From the IMG/VR virus record IMGVR_UViG_2541047705_000005: a stretch of 17,849 nucleotides of DNA. The stretch is one strand, 5' to 3'. This DNA is from a virus (Duplodnaviria > Heunggongvirae > Uroviricota > Caudoviricetes). Made by a program: the position numbers and the translations under genes. Positions within the stretch are counted from its first letter, which is position 1, and each line of letters opens with the position of its first letter. A model generated the notes under the pieces. The model searched no databases. It saw nothing but the letters and a program-made list of their open reading frames with translations, and was not told where the DNA came from. Below, piece after piece: positions 1,369-17,849 of the stretch.

Positions 1369-1444
1369 GCCGATATAGCTCAGTTGGTAGAGCAGCGCAT
1401 TCGTAATGCGAAGGTCGTAGGTTCGACTCCTATTATCGGCACCA
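1369..1444 (+). tRNA. thrW: tRNA-Thr (anticodon CGU)
   Basis: 76-nt sequence GCCGATATAGCTCAGTTGGTAGAGCAGCGCATTCGTAATGCGAAGGTCGTAGGTTCGACTCCTATTATCGGCACCA: acceptor stem, D-loop AGCTCAGTTGGTAGAGC, anticodon loop with CGT, T-loop GGTTCGACTCC, encoded CCA; sits just downstream of proA as thrW does in E. coli. Confidence 0.93.
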
Positions 1445-1610: not shown

Positions 1611-2825
1611 GTGAAACTCAATGCCCGTCAAATAGACACTGCCAAGCCAAAAGAGAAGGCTTACAAGCTGGCTGATGGTGGTGGTCTGTATCTCTTGGTA
1701 AAACCTAGTGGAGGAAAATATTGGCGCTTCAAGTATCGTGTAGCTGGTAAAGAGAAGCTGTTAGCACTAGGTGTGTATCCTGAAGTTACCTTGGCTGATG
1801 CTCGTGCAAAACGTGAAGAAGCTAAAAGGGGTATCGCTGGGGGTATCGATCCGATGGAAGCGAAACGAGAGGAAAAGATTGCCCGGGAAACGCAGTTAAA
1901 CAACACCTTCAAAGATATTGCCCTTGAGTGGCACAGCAGCAAATTAAAAAAATGGTCTGCTGGTTATGCTTCAGACATCCTCGAAGCCTTCAACAAAGAT
2001 GTGTTCCCTTACATTGGCAAAAAACCAATCGCCGAAATCAAACCACTTGAACTGCTGAATGTGCTGCGGCGCATCGAGGGGCGCGGTGCTACCGAAAAAG
2101 CCAAAAAAGTGAGGCAGCGATGTGGGGAAGTTTTCCGCTATGCAATTGTCACTGGACGTGCTGAGTATAACCCTGCACCGGATCTCACCAGCGCGATGCA
2201 AGGTCATGAATCTAATCATTATCCTTTCCTCACAGCCAAAGAATTACCTGATTTTTTCAAGGCATTGTCCAGTTACTCAGGAAGTGCATTGGTTGTTATG
2301 GCGGCTCGTTTACTGATTATCACCGGTTTGCGGACTGGCGAACTGCGCGGTGCATTATGGGATGAAATCGATCTCAACAAGGCTATCTGGGAGATACCTG
2401 CTTCACGGATGAAAATGCGTCGCCCTCATGTAGTGCCTTTGTCTGAGCAGGCTCTTTCGCTTATTGGGCAGATTAAAGAACTAACTGGCAATTATCCGCT
2501 TATGTTTCCCGGCCGTAATGATCCAAGGAAAACAATGAGCGAGGCTAGCATAAACCAAGTATTTAAACGCATCGGCTATAACGGAAAGGTTACTGGTCAT
2601 GGCTTCCGGCACACTATGAGCACCATTTTGCATGAGCAGGGCTATAACACCGCGTGGATAGAGACACAGCTTGCGCACGTTGATAAAAACTCAATTCGTG
2701 GCACATACAACCATGCGCAATATCTGGATGGGCGGCGGGAAATGCTTCAGTGGTACGCTGATTATATGGATTCGCTCGAGCATGGCGGAAATGTGGTGCA
2801 TGGTGAGTTCGGAAAATGCGGGTGA
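1611..2825 (+). CDS. int: Tyrosine site-specific recombinase, P4-like integrase family
   Basis: 404-aa ORF starting MKLNARQIDTAKPKEKAYKLADGGGLYLLVKPSGGKYWRFKYR (typical P4-family N-terminus); C-terminal catalytic region with ...HGFRHTMSTILHEQGY... (H-x-x-R) and ...LAHVDKNSIRGTYNHAQY (catalytic Tyr region). GTG start at 1611 preceded by GGAGG; adjacent to a tRNA gene. Confidence 0.9.
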   Translation: MKLNARQIDTAKPKEKAYKLADGGGLYLLVKPSGGKYWRFKYRVAGKEKLLALGVYPEVTLADARAKREEAKRGIAGGIDPMEAKREEKIARETQLNNTFKDIALEWHSSKLKKWSAGYASDILEAFNKDVFPYIGKKPIAEIKPLELLNVLRRIEGRGATEKAKKVRQRCGEVFRYAIVTGRAEYNPAPDLTSAMQGHESNHYPFLTAKELPDFFKALSSYSGSALVVMAARLLIITGLRTGELRGALWDEIDLNKAIWEIPASRMKMRRPHVVPLSEQALSLIGQIKELTGNYPLMFPGRNDPRKTMSEASINQVFKRIGYNGKVTGHGFRHTMSTILHEQGYNTAWIETQLAHVDKNSIRGTYNHAQYLDGRREMLQWYADYMDSLEHGGNVVHGEFGKCG

Positions 2826-2953
2826 CTGGTTGAGTATACAGTAGTAGACTTTGAGCGACGAAAGAAAAGGCTGTGTCTAGGGTCGCTCCCGAAAATCCGT
2901 ACACCTCGACGGACTGGTACAGCCACTACAGTAGAGGACGCTGAGGTGTGCGT

Positions 2954-3978: not shown

Positions 3979-4176
3979 ATGTCAAATACGCTTATTCGTT
4001 TAACAGAAGTTCAGCGTAGAACTGGATATAGCAAGGCATGGATTTATCGCCTTATGGGGCAAGGTAAATTTCCTGCATCAGTTAAAATTGGCTCGCGAGC
4101 TATTGCTTTCGTTGAGAGTGAAATTGACGAGTGGATTAATCAGCGTATTGCGGAATCACGCGGAACAGCTACCTGA
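3979..4176 (+). CDS. alpA: AlpA/Vis-family prophage transcriptional regulator (small HTH protein)
   Basis: 65-aa protein MSNTLIRLTEVQRRTGYSKAWIYRLMGQGKFPASVKIGSRAIAFVESEIDEWI, the characteristic AlpA pattern; GAGGT RBS; position after int is typical for P4-like elements and Gram-negative PICIs. Confidence 0.8.
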   Translation: MSNTLIRLTEVQRRTGYSKAWIYRLMGQGKFPASVKIGSRAIAFVESEIDEWINQRIAESRGTAT

Positions 4177-4253: not shown

Positions 4254-5054
4254 ATGAAATTTCCAAAAACGCCCGTACAGGGGCGGGGCTTCGTTCGGCC
4301 TGAAAACCAGAATCTGCAAAATTTCGGCGAAATTATCCCGATTATTTCCGGCGTTATTGGCGGGAGTGAAACCACTATTGTTAGCGCCAGAGCGTTACAT
4401 AAGGCGTTAGGTGTAGGGCGCGTTTTCCGTTCGTGGATCAAGGGGCGCATTGAAGAATATGGGTTCACGGAAGGCGTGGATTATGAGGTTGTTGAATATT
4501 TGAGCCGACCCGATCCGGTGAGCGCAAAATCTCGCCAGCAAACCGCTCTTGAGTACATCATCACAGTGAACATGGCGAAAGAACTGGCGATGGTCGAACG
4601 TACCGAACAGGGCCGCGCCGTTCGCCAGTACTTTATCAAATGCGAGGAGGAGCTACACAAGGTTGCGCCTGTTCGTTCCGCAGCGTTACGCCGGGAACTG
4701 AAAGCCCGTATCACAGTTGCCAGCTACTTTAAGCCAATGTGTGCCGCGCTGGAGGCGTACCGGGCTGAACTGGGTAAAAACACACTCCAGCACCACTACA
4801 CCACGGAAGCGAACATGCTGGCGCGTATCGTGCTGGGTGGCATGACTGCAAAACAGTGGGCACTGGCGAACGGCATTACAGGCGAACCACGCGACCACAT
4901 GAGCACGTTGCAGCTTGAGCACCTTTCTTACCTTGAGCAGAGCAATATCACGCTGATTGAGTTAGGCCAGGACTACCACCAGCGGAAGGCTGAATTAATT
5001 CGTCTTTCGCAGCGTTGGTTAGCCCGTCGCATGGAGGAAAACAGCCATGTGTAA
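4254..5054 (+). CDS. Phage antirepressor-like protein (AntA/AntB-type N-terminal domain)
   Basis: 266-aa ORF; N-terminal SARALHKALGVGRVFRSWIKGRIEEYGFTEGVDYEV and later ITVNMAKELAMVERTEQGRAVRQYFIKCEEEL resemble antirepressor motifs as I recall them; AGGAG RBS 6 nt upstream. Family assignment is from memory, not a search. Confidence 0.55.
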   Translation: MKFPKTPVQGRGFVRPENQNLQNFGEIIPIISGVIGGSETTIVSARALHKALGVGRVFRSWIKGRIEEYGFTEGVDYEVVEYLSRPDPVSAKSRQQTALEYIITVNMAKELAMVERTEQGRAVRQYFIKCEEELHKVAPVRSAALRRELKARITVASYFKPMCAALEAYRAELGKNTLQHHYTTEANMLARIVLGGMTAKQWALANGITGEPRDHMSTLQLEHLSYLEQSNITLIELGQDYHQRKAELIRLSQRWLARRMEENSHV

Positions 5055-5771
5055 CGCTCTGACCGTTACAAAAAGAGAAAGCGCCCCGTTGCCGGAGCGC
5101 CTTTGTGAACGAATAGCCTACTGCGCCATATTGCTTACTGTCTACGAGGCAGATTATAGCGTTGTGGTCGCACAGAGTGAAGGCGCTGATCACCGTTACT
5201 ACAGCACGCCAGAAATGCAGAATATTTTGCTGCAAAATGTCGTTGGTCACACTGTCCGGAAAGCAAAAAATTTTGCTGGTGGCGCGACTGATGCGATTTT
5301 GTCAGGTCGCCAGGTGCTGATCAATCTGATGTCTGATTTCGTTCTGGATAAAACAAAGGCGACCGCAGAGGGCCGCCAGTGGGAAAGCTACATACTTGAA
5401 CGCATCGCCAACAATGCCAGATTTGCGGCTGGTGGGCAATGTGTCAGCTTTGCACCAATGACTCTATGTTTAACTGAGGGTCATTATGGTGAATATGCTG
5501 GCTTGCTGGTGGGCTATTCCTGCTCTTTAACATTGCCATGCCGCGATGTTTTCCAGGTATGCGACCCCATTTTTGTGCACCTGTACTCTTTAAGGAATTT
5601 CTCAAGGACAAACGCACAGGGCGCGAATCTGTCTGACTCATGCTCGTACGCTATCTTTCTGCGCTGTCTTTTCCGTGCCGGTGATGGTGTATTGGTTGAT
5701 TCTTTGTTGGTCATGGCGCTGCCCTGTAAAATAATGCACCGTAGTTCCTCACACCACGGCACCTATAGTGG

Positions 5772-6044
5772 TTATTCCTGCTCTTTAGCTTTGCGCCGCT
5801 GGAGTTCTTCACGCGCGACGGTGACGAGTTGCCCGATTTCCTCGGCAGCTTTGACTCCGATTTTTTCCACCTGCGCTAGGGCATCGAGCGAAGAAACCAG
5901 GGGATTTTCTCCGCTTCCTTCTGCCTGGCGGCGGGCGATTTCACCGCGAACGGCTGTAATCACGAAAGCGGCTATTGTTTCCCCTTCCGTTTTCGAATTT
6001 TCCATTTCCTCGATTACATCATGGGGGAAGCGGATATTTTTCAT
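5772..6044 (-). CDS. Putative ribbon-helix-helix (CopG/Arc-like) DNA-binding protein, divergent from the replication operon
   Basis: Minus-strand ORF (track 5772..6077); internal start gives MKNIRFPHDVIEEMENSKTEGETIAAFVITAVRGEIARRQ, which fits the RHH N-terminal beta-strand/helix pattern. No clear SD for either start, so the start is uncertain. Confidence 0.45.
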   Translation of the reverse strand: MKNIRFPHDVIEEMENSKTEGETIAAFVITAVRGEIARRQAEGSGENPLVSSLDALAQVEKIGVKAAEEIGQLVTVAREELQRRKAKEQE

Positions 6045-6168
6045 TTGCGATCTGCTGTTGATGTTTCCTGTTGCCATCAGAATGTCCGGTTATTTTGAGG
6101 TGTGTACACATTACACCAAAAGGTGTGTTGATAAAACACTTGACACTGTAGCACACTTAAATTTAATT

Positions 6169-6201
6169 TGTATATACACCAATTGTTGTGGTGTATATAC
6201 A
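6169..6201. promoter_or_regulatory. Perfect 12-bp inverted repeat TGTATATACACC-N9-GGTGTATATACA (candidate operator) in the divergent intergenic region; a TTGACA hexamer lies at 6140-6145
   Basis: Read directly; lies between the minus-strand RHH ORF and the plus-strand operon starting at 6268. Confidence 0.45.
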
Positions 6202-6267
6202 GCAACGCCCCGCAGTGGTGGCACACATGCAGGGCGTCTAACCAAACCGTTAAACGAGGTAACGATT

Positions 6268-6633
6268 ATGGCTGGAACACAGCATACCCAAACTCACCCT
6301 AAATTTATATACACCTTCCTGGCGGTGCACCGTGATTGCATTGCTGACGGTAAAAACACTGTACACGTAGCCGCCGATACGCTGGTTGATGCCTGCGAGA
6401 TGCTCAATGACATGGGCTATATCTCGGCAACATGGAAAGGGCGCGAAGAAAACACGCTGTTTATTCAGAAATGCGAAAACAATTTTATCTGGCGTTTTAT
6501 CGCCCTGAGTACGGCACAACCGCGCGTGATTCACATCGAGGCCACCAGCGAACAGGAAGCACGCCAGCAATCTCCTGATGGCTGCGTGATGGTATTCGCT
6601 GCCCGTATTCGCCAGGAGGTGGAGCATGTGTAA
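6268..6633 (+). CDS. Hypothetical protein (first gene of replication-module operon)
   Basis: ATG at 6268 preceded by GAGGT; it is the 3' part of the stop-free track ORF 5047..6633; the stop overlaps the next start (CATGTGTAA junction). Confidence 0.6.
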   Translation: MAGTQHTQTHPKFIYTFLAVHRDCIADGKNTVHVAADTLVDACEMLNDMGYISATWKGREENTLFIQKCENNFIWRFIALSTAQPRVIHIEATSEQEARQQSPDGCVMVFAARIRQEVEHV

Positions 6634-6850
6634 TGCAACATGGCCTGATGCAGCGGTAGACGCTATCAAAACGCTGATGGATTCACTTATTGAGATTTCT
6701 GCTATCGCTGGTGTGGCGCATAAACACGCAGCCAGAGAATCAGAATGCATCTCCCATTATTTAGCATTTGTGCAGCTGAAAGCCGATCAGGCACTGGATA
6801 AGGCCGGAAAAATTATCATGGCTGATGTACAGGAGGTGCACCATGCATAA
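6626..6850 (+). CDS. Hypothetical small protein
   Basis: 74-aa ORF, start overlaps upstream stop (translational coupling). Confidence 0.5.
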   Translation: MCNATWPDAAVDAIKTLMDSLIEISAIAGVAHKHAARESECISHYLAFVQLKADQALDKAGKIIMADVQEVHHA

Positions 6851-7208
6851 CCTGTCAATTTCTGACCTTAACAGCATTCAGTTTGACGAGATATTTTCCG
6901 GGCAGCTACTGGTCAACGTGGAGAATGGACGCGTGGTAAGTAATTATCACCTGCCGGATGGTGCAATTGCCGGAAGCGTTGAAGCATTGCTGGAGCTGGC
7001 GGAACGTGCGCGACTGATTAAGCCGTCAACGTGCCATCACGATGATGATCTGCATTTTACCGGGTGTATGGTGAGTCACTACGAAAACGGCGTTGAAGTA
7101 TCCTGCGAACGTCTGCGTGATGATTGCTGTTTCGGCACACTGCCGGAATTTATCGAATTGCTGACCAGTTGCGGTTATCAGGTCATTCAGGGGGGTAAAC
7201 ATGCGTGA
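6843..7208 (+). CDS. Hypothetical protein
   Basis: Track ORF 6825..7208; I prefer the ATG at 6843 (MHNLSISDL...) preceded by CAGGAGGT; overlaps the upstream stop by 8 nt. Confidence 0.55.
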   Translation: MHNLSISDLNSIQFDEIFSGQLLVNVENGRVVSNYHLPDGAIAGSVEALLELAERARLIKPSTCHHDDDLHFTGCMVSHYENGVEVSCERLRDDCCFGTLPEFIELLTSCGYQVIQGGKHA

Positions 7209-7434
7209 TGATCGTTTTAATTCCCTGAAACAGGAGTTTGATGGCGCACCGGAAGATACATCGGGCGCATTGTTGAGCATTGCTGACATGATGAAAGCTG
7301 CATATTTTCTTATCAATACCAGTGGCTACAAGTCAGAGGGTGAAATGATTCTTAGTATTGCGTCGGACTATGCTGAATATGTGGCAGAGACGCGTTACAG
7401 AAGAAAATCTCTGGAGGATGTAAGCCATGCATAA
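7201..7434 (+). CDS. Hypothetical small protein
   Basis: 77-aa ORF; ATG overlaps the upstream TGA. Confidence 0.5.
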   Translation: MRDDRFNSLKQEFDGAPEDTSGALLSIADMMKAAYFLINTSGYKSEGEMILSIASDYAEYVAETRYRRKSLEDVSHA

Positions 7435-7627
7435 TCATGAAGCGCATGTACCCGTAGTGCTTAATGTGCCAGATGATTTCACCGGACGCGTGCTGGTTTA
7501 CCTGGATAAAGGGAAAGTGAAATCACAATGCCGACTGAAAAGTAATGAGATTGTTGGTTCTCCTGAATTTTTTTCTGAACTTTGTATTCGTGCGGAAATA
7601 AAACCGGAACTGCTGACAGGAAAATAA
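7427..7627 (+). CDS. Hypothetical small protein
   Basis: 66-aa ORF; GGAGG 9 nt upstream; overlaps the upstream stop. Confidence 0.5.
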   Translation: MHNHEAHVPVVLNVPDDFTGRVLVYLDKGKVKSQCRLKSNEIVGSPEFFSELCIRAEIKPELLTGK

Positions 7628-7631
7628 AACC

Positions 7632-7922
7632 ATGAAAAAGAAAAATTCTGGCTTTACTGCCAGCGGCCTCTCTCGGCCTGAAATCCGCCCCGGTGATATT
7701 TTCCGGGACACCAGACGCGGGGGACGGGTGGTTATTCGTCACGTTACGCCAGGCAATATCACCTACCGCCGTGAGGCTTACGAATATGACTGCGTAATGC
7801 CGCGCCGTCAGTTTGAGCGTGATTTTATTCTGGTGGAAAACAAACAACAGGCAGTGGCGAGACGTGCAGCCACGAATATTAAAAAAATCCGGGCAATGTT
7901 GGTTGCGGGAGGTAAGAAGTGA
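7632..7922 (+). CDS. Hypothetical small basic protein
   Basis: 96-aa ORF; its stop overlaps the GTG start of the primase-like gene. Confidence 0.5.
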   Translation: MKKKNSGFTASGLSRPEIRPGDIFRDTRRGGRVVIRHVTPGNITYRREAYEYDCVMPRRQFERDFILVENKQQAVARRAATNIKKIRAMLVAGGKK

Positions 7923-9724
7923 AAAACGCACCGAATTTAAAATATCAGCCGAAGGATAAATTCACCGAGGTAATCATTTTTGCCGGGACGGATGCTTACG
8001 CCCATGCTCAACACTGGATTGAAAGCGAAGGACGAAAACACGGCGATAACGTGCCTCCTGTTTACCTGGGGCCAAAGCAACTGGCAGACCTGGCGAATAT
8101 CCGCATTGTCGACGATGAACGTCGCTTTGCGCGTGTCTATCTCGCGGGGGAGATAGAGCCAATCCAGATCAATGCTATTGCTGAAAAGCTGGCGCTGGCT
8201 GGTGTACAGGACGCGAAATTATACAAAGGTATCACCGACCGGGAGCCGGAAAACTGGCGCGACTACCTGCAACGGATCCGCGAACAGGCAGAGAGTGGGG
8301 AAGTTTCAGCGATGAAATTAGCCACAAAAAATATTGACCTATCCAGGCCAGCACTAAATCAGATGGGAGCCAGCCAGAGAGGGGAAGTGTTACTTGAATA
8401 TTATGGAAGAGCACTGGCTATAAATGATGATTCTGATGTAGTTCACCATTACAACGGAATTGTCTGGGTGCCTGTATCTGATAAGGAACTCCAGCGGTCT
8501 ATGGCGAAGATTTTTATTGATGCTGGAATCAGTTATTCGCAAAACGCCATTAAATTTGCCGTAGACACAATGAAATTGAGCCTGCCTGTTATGGGCGGGG
8601 CAGACAGGAATCTTATTGGATTCAGTAACGGGGTATTTGATACCCGGACGGGAAATTTTCGGGAGCATAACAAAAATGACTGGTTGTTAAATGCCAGTGA
8701 ATTACCGTTCAGCCCACCAGCAGAGGGGGAAACGCTGGCAACACATGCGCCGAATTTCTGGAAGTGGCTGCGTCGTTCGGTGGCAGATAATGAGCGTAAA
8801 GCTGATCGCGTACTGGCGGCATTATTCATGGTACTGGCGAACCGGTACGACTGGCAGTTATTCCTTGAGGTAACAGGCCCAGGCGGAAGCGGTAAAAGTG
8901 TGATGGCTGAGATTTGTACCATGCTGGCGGGTAAGGCCAACACAGTATCGGCAAGCATGAAGGCTCTGGAAGACGCAAGGGAACGCGCGTTAGTAGTTGG
9001 CTTTTCGCTGATTATCATGCCGGATATGACTCGCTACGCTGGCGATGGTGCAGGAATTAAGGCAATTACTGGCGGCGACAAGGTGGCAATTGATCCGAAA
9101 CATAAAGCCCCCTACTCCACACGTATTCCGGCAGTAGTGCTTGCGGTAAACAATAACGCCATGTCATTCAGTGACCGAAGCGGGGGGATCTCGCGTCGTA
9201 GGGTGATATTTAATTTCTCTGAGGTCGTACCGGAGAACGAACGCGATCCCATGCTGGCGGAAAAGATAGAAGGCGAACTGGCGGTAGTGATTCGCCATTT
9301 GCTAACACGATTTACCGACCAGGACGAAGCTAAAAGACTACTTTATGAGCAGCAAAAATCAGAAGAAGCGCTGTTGATAAAGCGCGAAGGTGATTCACTG
9401 GTGGACTTTTGCGGCTATCTGATGTCGTTGGTTAAATGTGAAGGAATGATGGTGGGCAATGCGGAAATAGTGCCATTTAGCCCGAGGCGATACCTGTATC
9501 ATGCTTATTTAGCCTATATGTCAGCGCATGGCCTGGGAAAACCAGTATCACTGACACGCTTTGGTACTGATATGCCAGGAGCTATGGCGGAATACGGAAA
9601 GGAGTATAAGCGGGCTAAATGCACTAAAGGCCCGGATAAAGGGCGAGTGATAACAAATGTTCTGTTAGATGATGATGCTGATGGCTGGTTGCCAGCAGCT
9701 ACAGGGATTAACGACAGAACATAA
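7919..9724 (+). CDS. Primase/helicase-like replication initiator (P4-alpha / D5-type NTPase family)
   Basis: 601-aa ORF, GTG start after GGGAGGT; Walker A P-loop LEVTGPGGSGKSVMAEI in the C-terminal half; last gene of a coupled operon and followed immediately by an iteron array, as expected for satellite pri/rep genes. Confidence 0.75.
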   Translation: MKNAPNLKYQPKDKFTEVIIFAGTDAYAHAQHWIESEGRKHGDNVPPVYLGPKQLADLANIRIVDDERRFARVYLAGEIEPIQINAIAEKLALAGVQDAKLYKGITDREPENWRDYLQRIREQAESGEVSAMKLATKNIDLSRPALNQMGASQRGEVLLEYYGRALAINDDSDVVHHYNGIVWVPVSDKELQRSMAKIFIDAGISYSQNAIKFAVDTMKLSLPVMGGADRNLIGFSNGVFDTRTGNFREHNKNDWLLNASELPFSPPAEGETLATHAPNFWKWLRRSVADNERKADRVLAALFMVLANRYDWQLFLEVTGPGGSGKSVMAEICTMLAGKANTVSASMKALEDARERALVVGFSLIIMPDMTRYAGDGAGIKAITGGDKVAIDPKHKAPYSTRIPAVVLAVNNNAMSFSDRSGGISRRRVIFNFSEVVPENERDPMLAEKIEGELAVVIRHLLTRFTDQDEAKRLLYEQQKSEEALLIKREGDSLVDFCGYLMSLVKCEGMMVGNAEIVPFSPRRYLYHAYLAYMSAHGLGKPVSLTRFGTDMPGAMAEYGKEYKRAKCTKGPDKGRVITNVLLDDDADGWLPAATGINDRT

Positions 9725-9751: not shown

Positions 9752-10090
9752 GGTAGACGGTTGGTAGACAGATTCACTTAACCCTCTACCAACCATCTAC
9801 CAATTAATATTTTGAATTATAAAGATATTTTCAATGTGGTAGAGAGGTAGACAGTTATTTCTATATTCCTACACCACGGGGGGTATATAAAAAACAGATA
9901 GTTAAGGGGGCATTTTTTAAATTTCTCTTTTAACTGTCTACACTGTCTACCATTTAGTAAAAATCATTAATTATCAATGTATTAATGCGGTAGACCGTTG
10001 GTAGACAGTTTGCAGATTGTTTTTTTGTTATGTGTTAATAACATTAAATAAATCAATCAATTATATCGGTAGACAGTTGGTAGACAGTTG
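9752..10090. repeat. Iteron array: six copies of a ~20-bp unit GGTAGAC-N3-4-GGTAGACAG in both orientations (9752-9773, 9784-9801 inv, 9838-9856, 9933-9951 inv, 9989-10010, 10068-10090) separated by AT-rich spacers; putative replication origin
   Basis: Read directly; iterons plus AT-rich spacers immediately downstream of the primase/helicase-like gene match origin architecture of P4-like satellites and PICIs. Confidence 0.5.
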
Positions 10091-14750: not shown

Positions 14751-15977
14751 ATGATTGCAGGCGCGAAAAGAGGGAGAAACGAACGCAAGGGGCTTCACTC
14801 TTGGCATCCATACTATGCGGGCTATTCAGAGTCATTTGTGGCTTCTGTTTTGCAGGCTGAAGGAGTTAAGTCGTCCGCTACCGTTCTTGATCCTTGGATG
14901 GGAAGCGGTACCACTGGTATAGTTTGTCAAAAGCAAACCATAAAGTGTATTGGAGCAGATATTAATCCTGTAATGAGCTATTTTGCTGCAGCCAAAAGTA
15001 GGGATAATATTTCAGCGCTGGATTATACCGGAGAGCAACTCCTGGAAAGGATACTGCTTTGCTTTAGAAAAAAAACAAAAGATATAACTGAGTCATCGAA
15101 GGGCTATCCACTTATTGAACAGTTACAAAAGTTTTATAAATGTATCTGTGATCAGTTTATGGATAAAGGACAAAATGATATCGTAAATCCTTTAAAAGCA
15201 TTTTATTGCAGTGTTTTATTTTATACTGTTCGCAATGTCCTTGATGTTAGGTCAACTTCAAATCCTACATGGATTTCTAAAAAAGTAGACTTTAATAATA
15301 AATTTGATATTTGTTTTGAATATAATAAAAATTTTAAAATTATGCGTGAGCAGTTAAGTGAATATTATGGCAGCGCTAATGGGGGGGCATGTTACTCGAT
15401 TTTAAACGTGGATAGTAAAAAATTAAATATTAAAAGTAACACAATTGATCTTGTTATTACATCGCCACCGTATTTAACACGAATAGACTATGCCGTTTCT
15501 ACTCGTCTTGAGTTGGAAATAATTTTAGGGAGTGAGGGATATAAGTCTCTTAGAAAGGAAATGATGGGCACGACGACTGTGCCTAAAGTTGCGGATGAAA
15601 TTAATAAAAAATGGGGGCCATTGTGTATGGATGTTTTGTCATCGGTAACATCGCATACATCAAGAGCATCTGGAAGTTATTACCTTAAAAATAAAATTAG
15701 ATATTTTTCTGATGCGTATGAGTCATTAATGGAAATCTTTAGAGTTTTAAAGGTAGGTTGCTCTGGTTATTTTGTAATACAAAATTCATATTATAAGGAA
15801 ATAGAGATTCCGCTTTATGATATTTATTGTGAAATGGCGCTTTCTATTGGGTTTTCAGAAGCGAAATGTGTGAGAGAAGATCAAGTTAAAGCAATATTTG
15901 GACAAATAAATACCAAGTCAAAAAATTATATTAAAGATAAAGTTTATTTTGAAAAAATCATAAGGATAACAAAATGA
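14751..15977 (+). CDS. DNA methyltransferase (amino-methyltransferase: N4-cytosine or N6-adenine), motif I before motif IV
   Basis: 408 aa; SAM-binding motif I VLDPWMGSGTTG (14889-14918) and catalytic motif IV SPPY in DLVITSPPYLTRIDYA (15462-15473); AT-rich codon usage; stop overlaps next start (ATGA). Confidence 0.8.
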   Translation: MIAGAKRGRNERKGLHSWHPYYAGYSESFVASVLQAEGVKSSATVLDPWMGSGTTGIVCQKQTIKCIGADINPVMSYFAAAKSRDNISALDYTGEQLLERILLCFRKKTKDITESSKGYPLIEQLQKFYKCICDQFMDKGQNDIVNPLKAFYCSVLFYTVRNVLDVRSTSNPTWISKKVDFNNKFDICFEYNKNFKIMREQLSEYYGSANGGACYSILNVDSKKLNIKSNTIDLVITSPPYLTRIDYAVSTRLELEIILGSEGYKSLRKEMMGTTTVPKVADEINKKWGPLCMDVLSSVTSHTSRASGSYYLKNKIRYFSDAYESLMEIFRVLKVGCSGYFVIQNSYYKEIEIPLYDIYCEMALSIGFSEAKCVREDQVKAIFGQINTKSKNYIKDKVYFEKIIRITK

Positions 15978-17086
15978 ATGACGTAACTAAATTGCTATCT
16001 CAGATAGATGAAAAAAGAGATGAGGTAGTAACTGATTCTTATACCATATCATGGCGTGAAGTAATTAATCTATATAAAGAAAATGAGATAACCATTTCTC
16101 CAGACTACCAAAGGCTTTTTCGTTGGGATAACGCAAGACAAAGCCAATTTATCGAGTCATTACTTTTAAATATACCTACGCCAACACTTTTTTTCTACAT
16201 TGATAATAATGGTAAGCAGGAGGTTATCGATGGATTGCAACGTGTGAGTACTATAATTAGATTTTTTTCAGAGGATATTTTTAATAAGGAAGAAATAGAT
16301 AATGCAAAGAAACAAAACTCTGTAAATGATGTCCGTAATCCAACTGTTCTTGATGATGTGCCTATAATTACAGAATTAAATGGATGGACTGCAAAAGGAT
16401 TGCCGGACAAAGTTAGCCGAACTATAAAAAATGCGCGAGTAAATGTTGTTATTTTGGAGCAAGAAACAAAACCTGAAACTAAATATAATGTTTTTAAACG
16501 ACTGAATAGGTCTGGTGTTCGTTTGAGTGACCAGGAAATACGTAATTGCATGGCTAGATTAGCAGGGAATGAATTTGCAGATCGCTTACGTAAGATGGCC
16601 GAAATTGATGGTATTGTTCAAGCTCTTGGAATAAATGAAGATGGCCAAAAATCTCAAGGTGTTGAGGAAGCTTTGCTACGAGTTATGGCATCTTTGACTT
16701 ATGCGGATAAATTTAGCCATAGTGTAACTGACTTTTTGGATGAATTTATGTTCTACGCGGCAGAACATAATGTTATTGATATTAATTTTGAATTAAAAAT
16801 AAAAAGAACTTTTGATTTGATAAATATTGCTGGTTTATCTGGTAAAGCATTTAAATTTAGAAAGGATGGTGCTCCAAGTGGCCCGTTTAGTACTAATTTA
16901 TTAGATGTTGTTGCTGTTGGTATTTTTAGTAATGTAGATAATTTAACACCTGCTGAGGTGGCGAAAAGATTTGATTATTTAATGGATGGTGAGATCAAAG
17001 AATTAAGAGCTTGTACTGGTTCTGGATCTAATACTAAAGCCAAATTAGAGAAAAGAATCGCTCTTGGGAAGAAGGTGTTTGGATAA
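15974..17086 (+). CDS. DUF262 (ParB/Srx-like NTPase domain) protein, stand-alone (no DUF1524/HNH domain evident)
   Basis: 370 aa; N-terminal signature PDYQRLFRW...IESLLLNIPTPTLFF...VIDGLQRVSTII (DGQQR-type motif, 16229-16243); AAGGA RBS; translationally coupled to the methyltransferase. Confidence 0.8.
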   Translation: MNDVTKLLSQIDEKRDEVVTDSYTISWREVINLYKENEITISPDYQRLFRWDNARQSQFIESLLLNIPTPTLFFYIDNNGKQEVIDGLQRVSTIIRFFSEDIFNKEEIDNAKKQNSVNDVRNPTVLDDVPIITELNGWTAKGLPDKVSRTIKNARVNVVILEQETKPETKYNVFKRLNRSGVRLSDQEIRNCMARLAGNEFADRLRKMAEIDGIVQALGINEDGQKSQGVEEALLRVMASLTYADKFSHSVTDFLDEFMFYAAEHNVIDINFELKIKRTFDLINIAGLSGKAFKFRKDGAPSGPFSTNLLDVVAVGIFSNVDNLTPAEVAKRFDYLMDGEIKELRACTGSGSNTKAKLEKRIALGKKVFG

Positions 17087-17087
17087 A

Positions 17088-17849
17088 ATGAGAATATCAG
17101 ATTTCGATGATTTCAAGGTGATGTTGGAAAAGACGAAAAATGAAAGTCTTGGATTCCTTGAGAGCATAAAGTCTATTAATGAGTTTATGTCGAGATCAGG
17201 TGATAAAGACAAGGAGGATATGTTTAGAATAATATCGGTCCCAATGATTTATTCTTCTTGGGAGGGTTTTTTTACTGAAACAATGTCAGTTTGCTTAAAT
17301 ACATTGAAACTCTCAGATAGAGAAGCATTTAGATACTCTGCAGAAATTCGAGCACTTTGGTTGCAACGAGAACCATTTTATAGCAAGTATGTAGATATGA
17401 TAAAAAATATTTATGATGCTGACTCACACCGAAGCATTGTCCATAATGGCGCCCAAATAAAAAAGAAAGTTACGAAGGGGGCGTTTAAACTAACAAGTGA
17501 GGTAATTCAACACATTGACAGGTTTAATAAATCCACATTATCAGATTGCGATGTTTCTGAATTAGTTATGACATTTTCCAATGTGAATGAAATGGTTGTC
17601 AAGGTGAATTTCGATGCTATAGGTTTGGATTATTCATTACTTGATTTATCGCAACTAGGTGAGGTTGTTGGCCTTAGAAATTCTTTGGGACATGGGGAGT
17701 TTAAAAGTAGTGTTAACCCTAGGAAATTTAATTCAATAATTGTGTATGTGGAAAATCTGATCATCGATTTGAATCAATGTGCTATAACGTGGTTGGATAA
17801 ATTAGAAGATGAAATAACTAAGCCTGAAGATAATGAGACTATTCAGTGA
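17088..17849 (+). CDS. Predicted all-alpha protein with C-terminal Rx4H motif (LRNSLGHGEF); putative HEPN-domain RNase effector
   Basis: Track ORF 17064..17849 uses a TTG; I prefer the ATG at 17088, 10 nt after GAAGGTG. R-N-S-L-G-H at 17676-17693 fits the HEPN Rx4-6H motif; stop TGA is the last codon of the window. The HEPN call rests on motif and composition only. Confidence 0.5.
   Translation: MRISDFDDFKVMLEKTKNESLGFLESIKSINEFMSRSGDKDKEDMFRIISVPMIYSSWEGFFTETMSVCLNTLKLSDREAFRYSAEIRALWLQREPFYSKYVDMIKNIYDADSHRSIVHNGAQIKKKVTKGAFKLTSEVIQHIDRFNKSTLSDCDVSELVMTFSNVNEMVVKVNFDAIGLDYSLLDLSQLGEVVGLRNSLGHGEFKSSVNPRKFNSIIVYVENLIIDLNQCAITWLDKLEDEITKPEDNETIQ

Follow-up and report, generated by a model that had tools for sequence, protein, structure and literature searches.

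A Candidate YlcI/YnfO-Type Repressor and Five-Site Operator Array at the Replication Promoter of an Escherichia coli Phage Satellite

The DNA analyzed here (IMG/VR record IMGVR_UViG_2541047705_000005; 17,849 nt, hereafter the window) is, judged by its gene content and order, a Gram-negative phage satellite of Escherichia coli of the phage-inducible chromosomal island (PICI) type, located beside a tRNA-Thr gene. A small minus-strand gene of the element, here called ylcI-like, diverges from icd, the first of seven plus-strand genes that end with a P4-type primase. We estimate at about two in three the probability of what we consider the best explanation of this region: a ribbon-helix-helix (RHH) repressor encoded by the ylcI-like gene, an array of five sites to which it would bind, and a by-pass in which upstream transcripts read through the repressed promoter. 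Its core is that an RHH-type repressor, transcribed divergently from the replication operon, acts on an operator at the promoter of that operon. Although unproven, this has strong comparative support: the gene is conserved and under purifying selection, the sites are specific to classes and follow the residues predicted to read DNA, and domain and sites are exchanged as a cassette.

The paper that founded the Gram-negative PICIs termed their repressor "unclear", AlpA being the known activator (PMC6092414). In the literature searched, no function was found for YlcI/YnfO proteins, and no RHH repressor in PICIs. A first-pass annotation of the window had proposed a repressor/operator pair consisting of a minus-strand RHH-like open reading frame (ORF), facing a seven-gene plus-strand operon, and a perfect inverted repeat in the intergenic region, which also holds a TTGACA hexamer. 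The ORF, the operon, and the hexamer are all present (Table 1), and the repeat (TGTATATACACC-N9-GGTGTATATACA) is perfect and slightly longer than had been given. The divergent repressor is backed by the comparisons below; the repeat by itself as the operator is not, since its two arms are the fourth and fifth of five sites.

The YlcI-Like Protein

The start of the gene was placed at the ATG at 6077 because M1, N7, and S10 are invariant in the homologues, which share the N-terminus MATGN.N.KSQ. The product belongs to the YlcI/YnfO family: residues 9-50 span the whole 42-position model NF041551 (YlcI_YnfO_N) with 64.2 bits against a cutoff of 30 (E = 8.2e-18). Two prophage proteins of E. coli K-12, YlcI (DLP12) and YnfO (Qin), are members of the same family through their N-terminal 42 residues. 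Homologues (n = 138) occur across the Enterobacterales, in Escherichia, Salmonella, Citrobacter, Yersinia, Klebsiella, Serratia, Erwinia, and other genera, and DNA resembling the query was found in 1220 of 5426 complete E. coli genomes. When a phage collection was searched, DNA similarity was confined to the leader and the start of icd, and a protein search with the 101-aa form gave one weak match (a Pasteurella satellite) and no other at the sensitivity used.

Comparison of coding sequences indicates that ylcI evolves under purifying selection, with a ratio of nonsynonymous to synonymous substitution (dN/dS) of 0.09-0.17 (0.086 over the C-terminal part, 0.167 over the N-terminal). The plus-strand frame that overlaps it has values of 0.21 and 0.32, and the ratio of ylcI is the lower of the two in 101 of 111 pairs (67/74 for the C-terminal part, 34/37 for the N-terminal part). 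These values, a conserved Shine-Dalgarno block (AAACTCC, invariant within a class of recognition strand; see below), and the match to the family model rule out ylcI as a shadow ORF of the long plus-strand frame.

The N-terminus (residues ~10-55) is likely to be an RHH DNA-binding domain. A monomer model from AlphaFold2, with a mean predicted local distance difference test score of 81, has an extended segment at 12-17 (MKNIRF), helices at 19-28 and 35-54, and a long helix at 59-100; residues 12-28, the peptide cited in the first-pass annotation, are MKNIRFPHDVIEEMENS. This is the strand-helix-helix topology of RHH proteins, and the two helices are joined by a turn, G32-E33-T34, in which G-E-T/S is conserved and E33 invariant; a G-x-S/T/N turn at this place is a hallmark of the fold. 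An hhalign comparison with Arc gave E = 0.0019, aligned NIRFPHDV to NLRWPREV, and placed residues 12, 14, and 16 on the base-contacting positions of Arc; the comparison with Mnt gave E = 0.035 over 13 columns. Matches to PF07704 below threshold were obtained for 24 of 33 homologues. The top Foldseek matches were mostly Arc, CopG, CdbA, and the RHH domain of MatP, with TacA and PutA-RHH also among the fold matches, all at E-values of 1.5 or worse. Those E-values count against the assignment, as do three further points: no Pfam family passed its threshold for the protein; a profile search of Protein Data Bank sequences returned no RHH protein, its top match being a helix-hairpin-helix segment of Hef (E = 0.013); and the two-chain sheet of an RHH dimer is beyond the reach of a monomer model. 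Support for the fold is thus moderate.

Five Sites over Two Predicted Promoters

The inverted repeat has 13-nt arms (6169-6181 and 6189-6201) that are 100% complementary and lie 7 nt apart. Three inverted repeats with non-overlapping arms of at least 12 nt within 40 nt of each other occur in the window, and this is the sole perfect one. Each arm contains the 10-bp palindrome TGTATATACA. The pattern TGTRTAYACA has three exact matches in the window, all within 6101-6201; with one mismatch allowed there are seven, against 1.56 expected, a number reached in 1 of 200 shuffles. The window has a series of five sites (O1-O5; Table 1) whose successive starts are 23, 23, 22, and 23 nt apart.

Besides the window, the comparison drew on 29 loci: 11 belong to E. 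coli, 13 to other genera, and three share the recognition strand of the window, the remaining two being the model E. coli satellite EcCICFT073 and a Pasteurella satellite, which was left out of the site comparison. All 29 loci compared for sites follow a fixed plan, in which class-specific 8- to 12-mers stand at about +22, +45, +67, +90, and +112 from the ylcI ATG, a -35 element at about +61, and a TAnnnT -10 element at about +84. The position of O1 is that of the first class-specific site in all related loci, and degenerate O2 has the position of the second; O3 aligns with TGCACACC in the three loci that have the same recognition strand. On this comparison the inverted repeat is not the whole of the predicted operator, its arms being O4 and O5 of the array.

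The promoter of the icd operon is also placed by conservation. TTGAC is kept 60-64 nt from the ylcI ATG in most related loci, with the variants TTGCA, TTGAA, and TTAAC, and TAnnnT is kept at the -10 position, the neighboring spacer being freely variable. The icd transcript is predicted to start at about 6174-6177, within O4. Between the first and second sites lies a block, TATACAC(A)AAAA, that is independent of class and is invariant within one class (that of strand LTTVRV); its reverse complement reads TATACT, TATAAT, or TGTAAT, and we infer that it is the -10 element of the ylcI promoter. The array therefore probably covers both the icd-operon promoter, where O3-O5 extend from the spacer to about +25, and the promoter of ylcI itself.

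Other sequences in or near the array were noted. The icd coding sequence contains a sixth near-match to the site (TTTATATACA, with CC after it; 6304-6313, plus strand), 112 nt past O5 and outside the 23-nt register. In four loci from other genera (L003, L008, L012, and L013) a perfect DnaA-box consensus, TTATCCACA, is found at about +100 to +110 from the ylcI ATG, which in the window is the position of the right arm of the inverted repeat; L002 has TTGTCCACA there. A scan flagged the inverted repeat as a minus-strand terminator, a reading rejected because its tail (AATTAAATTT) is poor and other classes do not retain the repeat as such.

Sites That Vary with the Predicted Recognition Strand

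Across loci, the sequence of the sites varies with six residues of the predicted DNA-reading strand, which include residues 12, 14, and 16; this co-variation gives indirect support to a dimer whose two-stranded antiparallel sheet would read repeated subsites. The strand MKNIRF pairs with TGTrTAyACA(CC) in four loci whose proteins are 53-72% identical, LTTVRV with GAAACACAC (in E. coli, Xenorhabdus, Photorhabdus, and Serratia), SLTARI with CTTACAC (E. coli and Enterobacter), QISIRI with GAATCACAC, MTTIRV with TGTATMTCAC, QLNARF and QINARF with GAATmCC, and ALKARV, the strand of EcCICFT073, with GTGGGCCACACC. Mean distances within and between classes are 0.21 and 0.64 for O3, 0.14 and 0.55 for O4, and 0.42 and 0.54 for the spacer. 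Within the LTTVRV class the sites, the -35, and the -10 are invariant; variation is unrestricted in the 9 nt that separate O3 from the -10.

The same region is a block of divergence between related elements. The window is 73-100% identical to the other E. coli loci over 5772-5951 (YlcI residues 43-101) and 50-76% identical over 5952-6191 (residues 1-42 and the sites), and in several of these loci identity is regained from about 6192. Locus L016 is the clearest case of exchange: its AlpA (WP_000072422.1 in both) and AntA proteins are identical to those of the window, its icd DNA is 96-100% and the DNA for the C-terminal half of its YlcI 93-100% identical, and its RHH domain and sites are 56-76% identical and its sites differ. 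Moreover, loci of the SLTARI class carry three types of initiator (RepA helicase, DNA primase, and DUF927). Because of the L016 case and the three initiators found with one class, the sites can be said to track the RHH domain rather than AlpA, Icd, or the primase. The predicted RHH domain and its sites are, on this evidence, exchanged as one cassette between otherwise near-identical elements.

Two considerations lessen the weight of the co-variation. The difference between within-class and between-class distances is significant by label permutation (p = 0.0002), a test that ignores shared ancestry, and linkage may contribute because the RHH domain and the sites are physically adjacent. The sharp boundaries of the block and the footprint of conservation within a class argue for co-adaptation.

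Phased short repeats beside a replication module resemble iterons; the origin of P4, for example, has TGTTCACC repeats bound by the alpha protein. AlpA, moreover, is the proven activator in EcCICFT073 (PMC6092414). That the sites are read by some such factor, either as iterons by the primase or another initiator or as activator sites by AlpA, with the YlcI-like protein irrelevant to them, is nevertheless very improbable. Iterons or a replication origin are ruled out because the sites are independent of primase type, and AlpA sites as the main account of the array are ruled out by L016, where the AlpA is the same and the sites are different. Sites downstream of a transcription start would also be unusual for an activator. 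The replication origin of PICIs is reported to lie downstream of pri (PMC10111431), and in the window a 17-nt inverted repeat is found there (9752-9801; GGTAGACGGTTGGTAGA/TCTACCAACCATCTACC, 94% complementary, arms 16 nt apart), beginning 28 nt past the primase stop codon.

The icd Leader and the Gene Downstream of ylcI

In a minimum free energy (MFE) fold of an RNA begun at 6174, the exact 5' end forms a hairpin of 8 bp, and two more hairpins lie beyond it in the leader (Table 1). The first of these two is kept in all loci, with compensatory changes in three of seven consensus pairs, and is present also in E. coli elements that have no ylcI. The stem of the second co-varies in other loci (CGATA/TATCG, TGTAA/TTACA, and CATTA/TAATG, as read by eye). 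No Rfam family matches the leader hairpins.

The 5'-terminal hairpin raises the possibility that the inverted repeat acts mainly as RNA, as a stem-loop that stabilizes the icd message or sets its translation, its likeness to the sites being secondary. In line with this, a short inverted repeat directly follows O4 in several classes, with arms that differ: CACCTTGA/TCAAGGTG in EcCICFT073, CCTTGAG/CTCAAGG in Xenorhabdus, CACCTTG/CAAGGTG in the SLTARI class, and ACACCA/TGGTGT in the window. However, the repeat is absent from the E. coli LTTVRV class and from the MTTIRV class, where O5 is a direct repeat of O4; the right arm stands in the 22- to 23-bp register and carries the full class-specific palindrome; and a hairpin leaves both O1-O3 and the co-variation with the protein unexplained. 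As the main role of the repeat, an RNA element is therefore rather unlikely. An additional role at the RNA level is plausible and compatible with the repressor explanation, since the repeat begins at about +1 of the predicted transcript; the function as operator that had been proposed for it would fall to its two arms as sites, with the mRNA hairpin as a second, non-exclusive role.

An immunity RNA of the P4/P1 type was considered and ruled out. Neither C4 nor isrK was matched at the Rfam gathering score anywhere in the window, or at E <=5 within 5300-7000, and antisense complementarity of the leader hairpin to nearby sequence amounts to a chance match of 8 nt.

Directly after the ylcI stop codon is a terminator-like hairpin, conserved in 10 of the 11 other E. 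coli loci. The start of a second minus-strand ORF, small and basic, follows this hairpin in 9 of the 11; the ORF is absent from L016 and L017. Together with the fold matches, this small ORF gives some support to a different account of the RHH protein, as the antitoxin of a toxin-antitoxin-like pair. Icd, an inhibitor of cell division, or the small ORF would be its partner, and the sites would serve mainly to autoregulate the pair and not to control the life cycle of the satellite. We regard this as improbable. The ORF is missing from two loci, is separated from ylcI by 57 nt and the terminator-like hairpin, and matches no toxin family, its sole match being phrog_21027; three of the five sites are on the promoter of the icd operon and not on that of ylcI; and the EcCICFT073 form of the protein lacks the C-terminal helix entirely.

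A Stop-Free Frame through the Candidate Operators and Repressor Gene

The intergenic region lies between divergent genes, as the first-pass annotation had described, and is not free noncoding DNA: a plus-strand frame in phase with icd is free of stops over 5023-6633 and runs antisense through the small ORF and ylcI and across all the operators. From ATG 5047, where it overlaps the antA stop codon, it has 528 codons. The arrangement resembles that of the nested eta and kil genes of P4, with a long frame in phase with an Icd-like gene, an early promoter inside the frame, and coupling to an upstream gene.

In 20 of 28 loci no stop interrupts the icd-phase frame over the 600-1600 nt that precede the icd ATG, and the other two plus-strand frames are shut within 3-126 nt in all loci but one. 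By chance such openness would be rare: under dinucleotide shuffling the ~190-nt operator region was stop-free in 0.7-4.3% of cases per locus, and under synonymous recoding of ylcI the antisense frame stayed open in 1-31% of cases. Since the frame is kept open across at least nine cassette classes against this low chance, we conclude that its openness is selected.

What is selected is probably not an ordinary protein. The middle of the frame (350 residues, rich in Cys and Ser) matches no protein family and is less constrained than ylcI, and a normal plus-strand protein gene was rejected as a reading on these grounds. Only the ends resemble proteins: the C-terminus is Icd-like, and in EcCICFT073, where the frame begins directly after alpA, the N-terminus is Bro-like as judged by eye. 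We accordingly treat the middle as putatively "kept open" and not as encoding a domain. A dedicated role of AntA/Bro proteins as anti-repressors of YlcI was not supported: L022 and L026 have no annotated Bro-type gene between alpA and ylcI, and the C-terminus of YlcI is still conserved in them.

Related arrangements were seen in two other elements. Pasteurella phage Pmp7 (OR544138.1) contains an unannotated 59-aa YlcI-like ORF (MATGNKNNKSLKKGIRFPHELIQQI; L030 4778-5032, plus strand) that lies antisense within an annotated 224-aa "transcriptional repressor" with an Icd-like C-terminus. The nested arrangement therefore extends to Pasteurellaceae satellites, and the Pmp7 annotation probably names the wrong strand as the repressor. 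In E. coli RM9975 (L020 1834-3642) a long plus-strand frame of 602 codons crosses two consecutive copies of the leader and icd-start module and is also antisense through a second small RHH-like gene (MSTPLEKRSPPYQMRLPEEF), which suggests a tandem duplication of the switch.

The Proposed Circuit and Its Weak Points

According to the model that we favor, dimers of the YlcI-like protein would read O1-O5 through the side chains of strand residues 12, 14, and 16 (M, N, and R in the window), and the long C-terminal helix would probably join dimers, so that one oligomer could span sites two helical turns apart. With O3, O4, and O5 occupied, the promoter of the icd-primase operon would be covered from the spacer through the -10 and the start to about the first 25 nt of the transcript, and so shut; O1 and O2 bracket the presumed ylcI -10, and autoregulation there would limit synthesis of the repressor. 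On infection by a helper phage AlpA is made, as shown for EcCICFT073 (PMC6092414). Transcripts of the AlpA/AntA operon could then continue along the stop-free frame to reach icd and the replication genes, by-passing the repressed internal promoter; a terminator scan found no strong plus-strand terminator between alpA and icd. Being translated across ylcI and the operators, such transcripts would be protected from Rho and would run against transcription of ylcI. DNA binding, repression, oligomerization, the start sites, and the by-pass are all predicted from sequence.

A helper phage induces, packages, and transfers EcCICFT073, and over-expressed AlpA by itself induces replication of this element (PMC6092414). 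Its gene for a 59-aa YlcI/YnfO protein (L032 8474-8653; NC_004431.1 1380473-1380652) diverges from the Icd-like gene, and the promoter between them has two 12-nt direct repeats, GTGGGCCACACC, 23 nt apart, in the same layout as in the window.

Several observations weigh against the model. An in-frame deletion has removed the C-terminal helix from the EcCICFT073 protein, so the helix is dispensable in at least one active satellite. Because AlpA alone induces replication of that element, the RHH protein does not suffice as a lock and can provide at most one layer of control. O2 and O3 of the window are degenerate. A scan for consensus promoters did not call the icd promoter, position 2 of whose -10 is not A. 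Finally, 8 of 28 loci carry stops in the read-through frame.

Comparison with Known Systems

Divergent RHH repressor-operator pairs are textbook biology, exemplified by Mnt and Arc of P22. In the immI region of that phage (Mnt, Arc, and the ant operon), as proposed here, a small RHH repressor diverges from an early operon, has its operator on the promoter of that operon, and regulates itself. Mnt consists of an N-terminal RHH domain followed by a C-terminal helical oligomerization domain; the YlcI-like protein likewise has a predicted N-terminal RHH domain and a C-terminal helix, and its recognition strand is in register with that of Arc. The systems differ in that homology at the family level is not detectable (the hhalign E-values are those given above), that there are five sites at 22-23 bp instead of one operator of 17-21 bp, and that the operon controlled is the replication module of a satellite, with the repressor gene antisense within a stop-free frame.

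In P4, the early promoter PLE lies inside eta, and kil, in phase with eta, makes up its C-terminal part. Translation of eta, which prevents termination, takes place only from the upstream late promoter, and the immunity factor is an RNA (PMC10111431). The window and P4 have homologous operon content (an Icd/Kil-like first gene, Ash-like genes in relatives, and a P4-type primase) and share an internal promoter in a long frame, which keeps phase with the Kil/Icd-like gene and is coupled to an upstream AlpA/Bro-type gene; the late promoter PLL, with Vis, is part of the P4 design compared. Unlike P4, where the CI RNA acts with seqA in premature termination, the window has a protein gene and operators on the opposite strand of the frame.

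Stl and Rpr, the master repressors of Staphylococcus aureus pathogenicity islands (SaPIs) and Gram-positive PICIs, are larger helix-turn-helix proteins whose relief by helper-phage proteins has been demonstrated. As in the present proposal, they are divergent from an excision/replication operon and silence the element until a helper phage arrives (PMC6092414). No homology to them was found, the fold predicted here being RHH, and only the divergent position is shared. NikR provides a parallel for the spacing: in this RHH tetramer, dimers held apart by an oligomerization domain read inverted half-sites whose centers lie about 22 bp, or two helical turns, from each other. That spacing matches the O1/O2 and O3/O4 pairs (e.g., GTGTGTTTC-N15-GAAACACAC); unlike NikR, the YlcI-like protein has no metal-binding domain and no homology to it outside the RHH fold, and its sites are five in number, with an orientation that depends on class.

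The Element and Its Gene Order

The sequence of the window is identical to part of the chromosome of E. coli E189, where the island adjoins tRNA-Thr. The genes int, alpA, and primase are found in the conserved order of PICIs at the tRNA-Thr attachment position, and the order int, alpA, ylcI (minus strand), icd, DUF4222, primase, PerC is the same as in EcCICFT073. Coordinates are collected in Table 1.

Table 1. Features of the window, with emphasis on the region between alpA and the replication operon
Feature	Coordinates	Strand	Remarks
tRNA-Thr	1369-1444		Preceded by proA; island begins after it
Integrase (int)	1611-2825		
AlpA-family regulator (alpA)	3979-4176		PF05930, E = 2.4e-19
AntA/AntB protein (antA)	4254-5054		Stop codon 5052-5054
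Stop-free frame	5047-6633	+	528 codons, in phase with icd
Small basic ORF	5514-5714	-	First of two small minus-strand genes; 66 aa, motif ERFAPCAFVLxxFL; RefSeq annotation; phrog_21027
Terminator-like hairpin	5736-5762	-	10-bp stem, then ATTATTTTAC
ylcI-like gene	5772-6077	-	Second small minus-strand gene; 101 aa, begins MATGNINSRSQMKNIRFPHDVIEEMENS
O1	6101-6110		Palindrome TGTGTACACA, exact match to TGTRTAYACA; +22 to +24 from ylcI ATG
ylcI -10, tentative	6110-6115	-	TGTAAT; between O1 and O2
O2	6124-6133		Degenerate, TGTGTTGATA; 7/10 matches to O1, read by eye
-35 hexamer, icd operon	6140-6145	+	TTGACA; counterpart of P4 PLE
O3	6147-6156		Half-site TGTAGCACAC, between -35 and -10
-10 region, icd operon	6162-6169	+	TTTAAT (16-nt spacer) or TAATTT (18-nt spacer), read by eye
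O4	6169-6178		TGTATATACA, then CCA; left arm of inverted repeat
O5	6192-6201		TGG, then TGTATATACA; right arm of inverted repeat
Leader hairpin 1	6205-6237	+	MFE fold; followed by conserved, invariant UCUAACCA
Leader hairpin 2	6248-6264	+	CGUUA/UAACG; Shine-Dalgarno GAGG in loop, 8 nt before icd ATG
icd-primase operon	6268-9724	+	Seven genes, ends overlapping or abutting; RefSeq annotation of identical locus
Icd-like gene	6268-6633	+	First of operon, then five small ORFs
DUF4222 gene	7632-7922	+	
P4-type primase	7919-9724	+	NF033153 and TIGR01613 matches within operon; PHROG primase match, E = 7.6e-157
ProQ/FinO and PerC genes			After primase
Defense-type genes	14751-17849	+	At far end of island

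Two features lie outside the switch. At 2870-2937 (plus strand), between the integrase gene and the next ORF, the Rfam int-alpA RNA motif (RF02996) is matched with 45.5 bits, its gathering score being 35.8. The distal genes of the island encode a DNA methyltransferase, a DUF262 protein, and a HEPN-like nuclease, and are likely to be anti-phage defense cargo.

Implications

Three elements of this proposal are new: a role for YlcI/YnfO proteins, a repressor candidate in Gram-negative PICIs, and its gene nested in a read-through frame. They can be extended to a general scheme, which we put forward as possible rather than probable. Gram-negative PICIs, EcCICFT073 among them, would have an immunity repressor of the YlcI/YnfO RHH type, with gene and five-site array antisense in a stop-free, "eta-like" frame, and the cassettes would define immunity groups of satellites; translated, AlpA-driven transcripts would escape Rho, by-pass the internal promoter, and hinder expression of the repressor, making the circuit a protein counterpart of the CI RNA/eta circuit of P4.

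If the repressor idea fails, the region is an ordinary promoter with repeats. As it stands, the analysis offers a concrete repressor candidate with mapped sites, relevant to about one-fifth of complete E. coli genomes and to EcCICFT073. If the stop-free frame is translated, it would exemplify something unusual, a frame whose openness serves the act of translation and not a protein product. If the proposal is true, exchangeable cassettes of domain and sites would define immunity groups among satellites that share one host.

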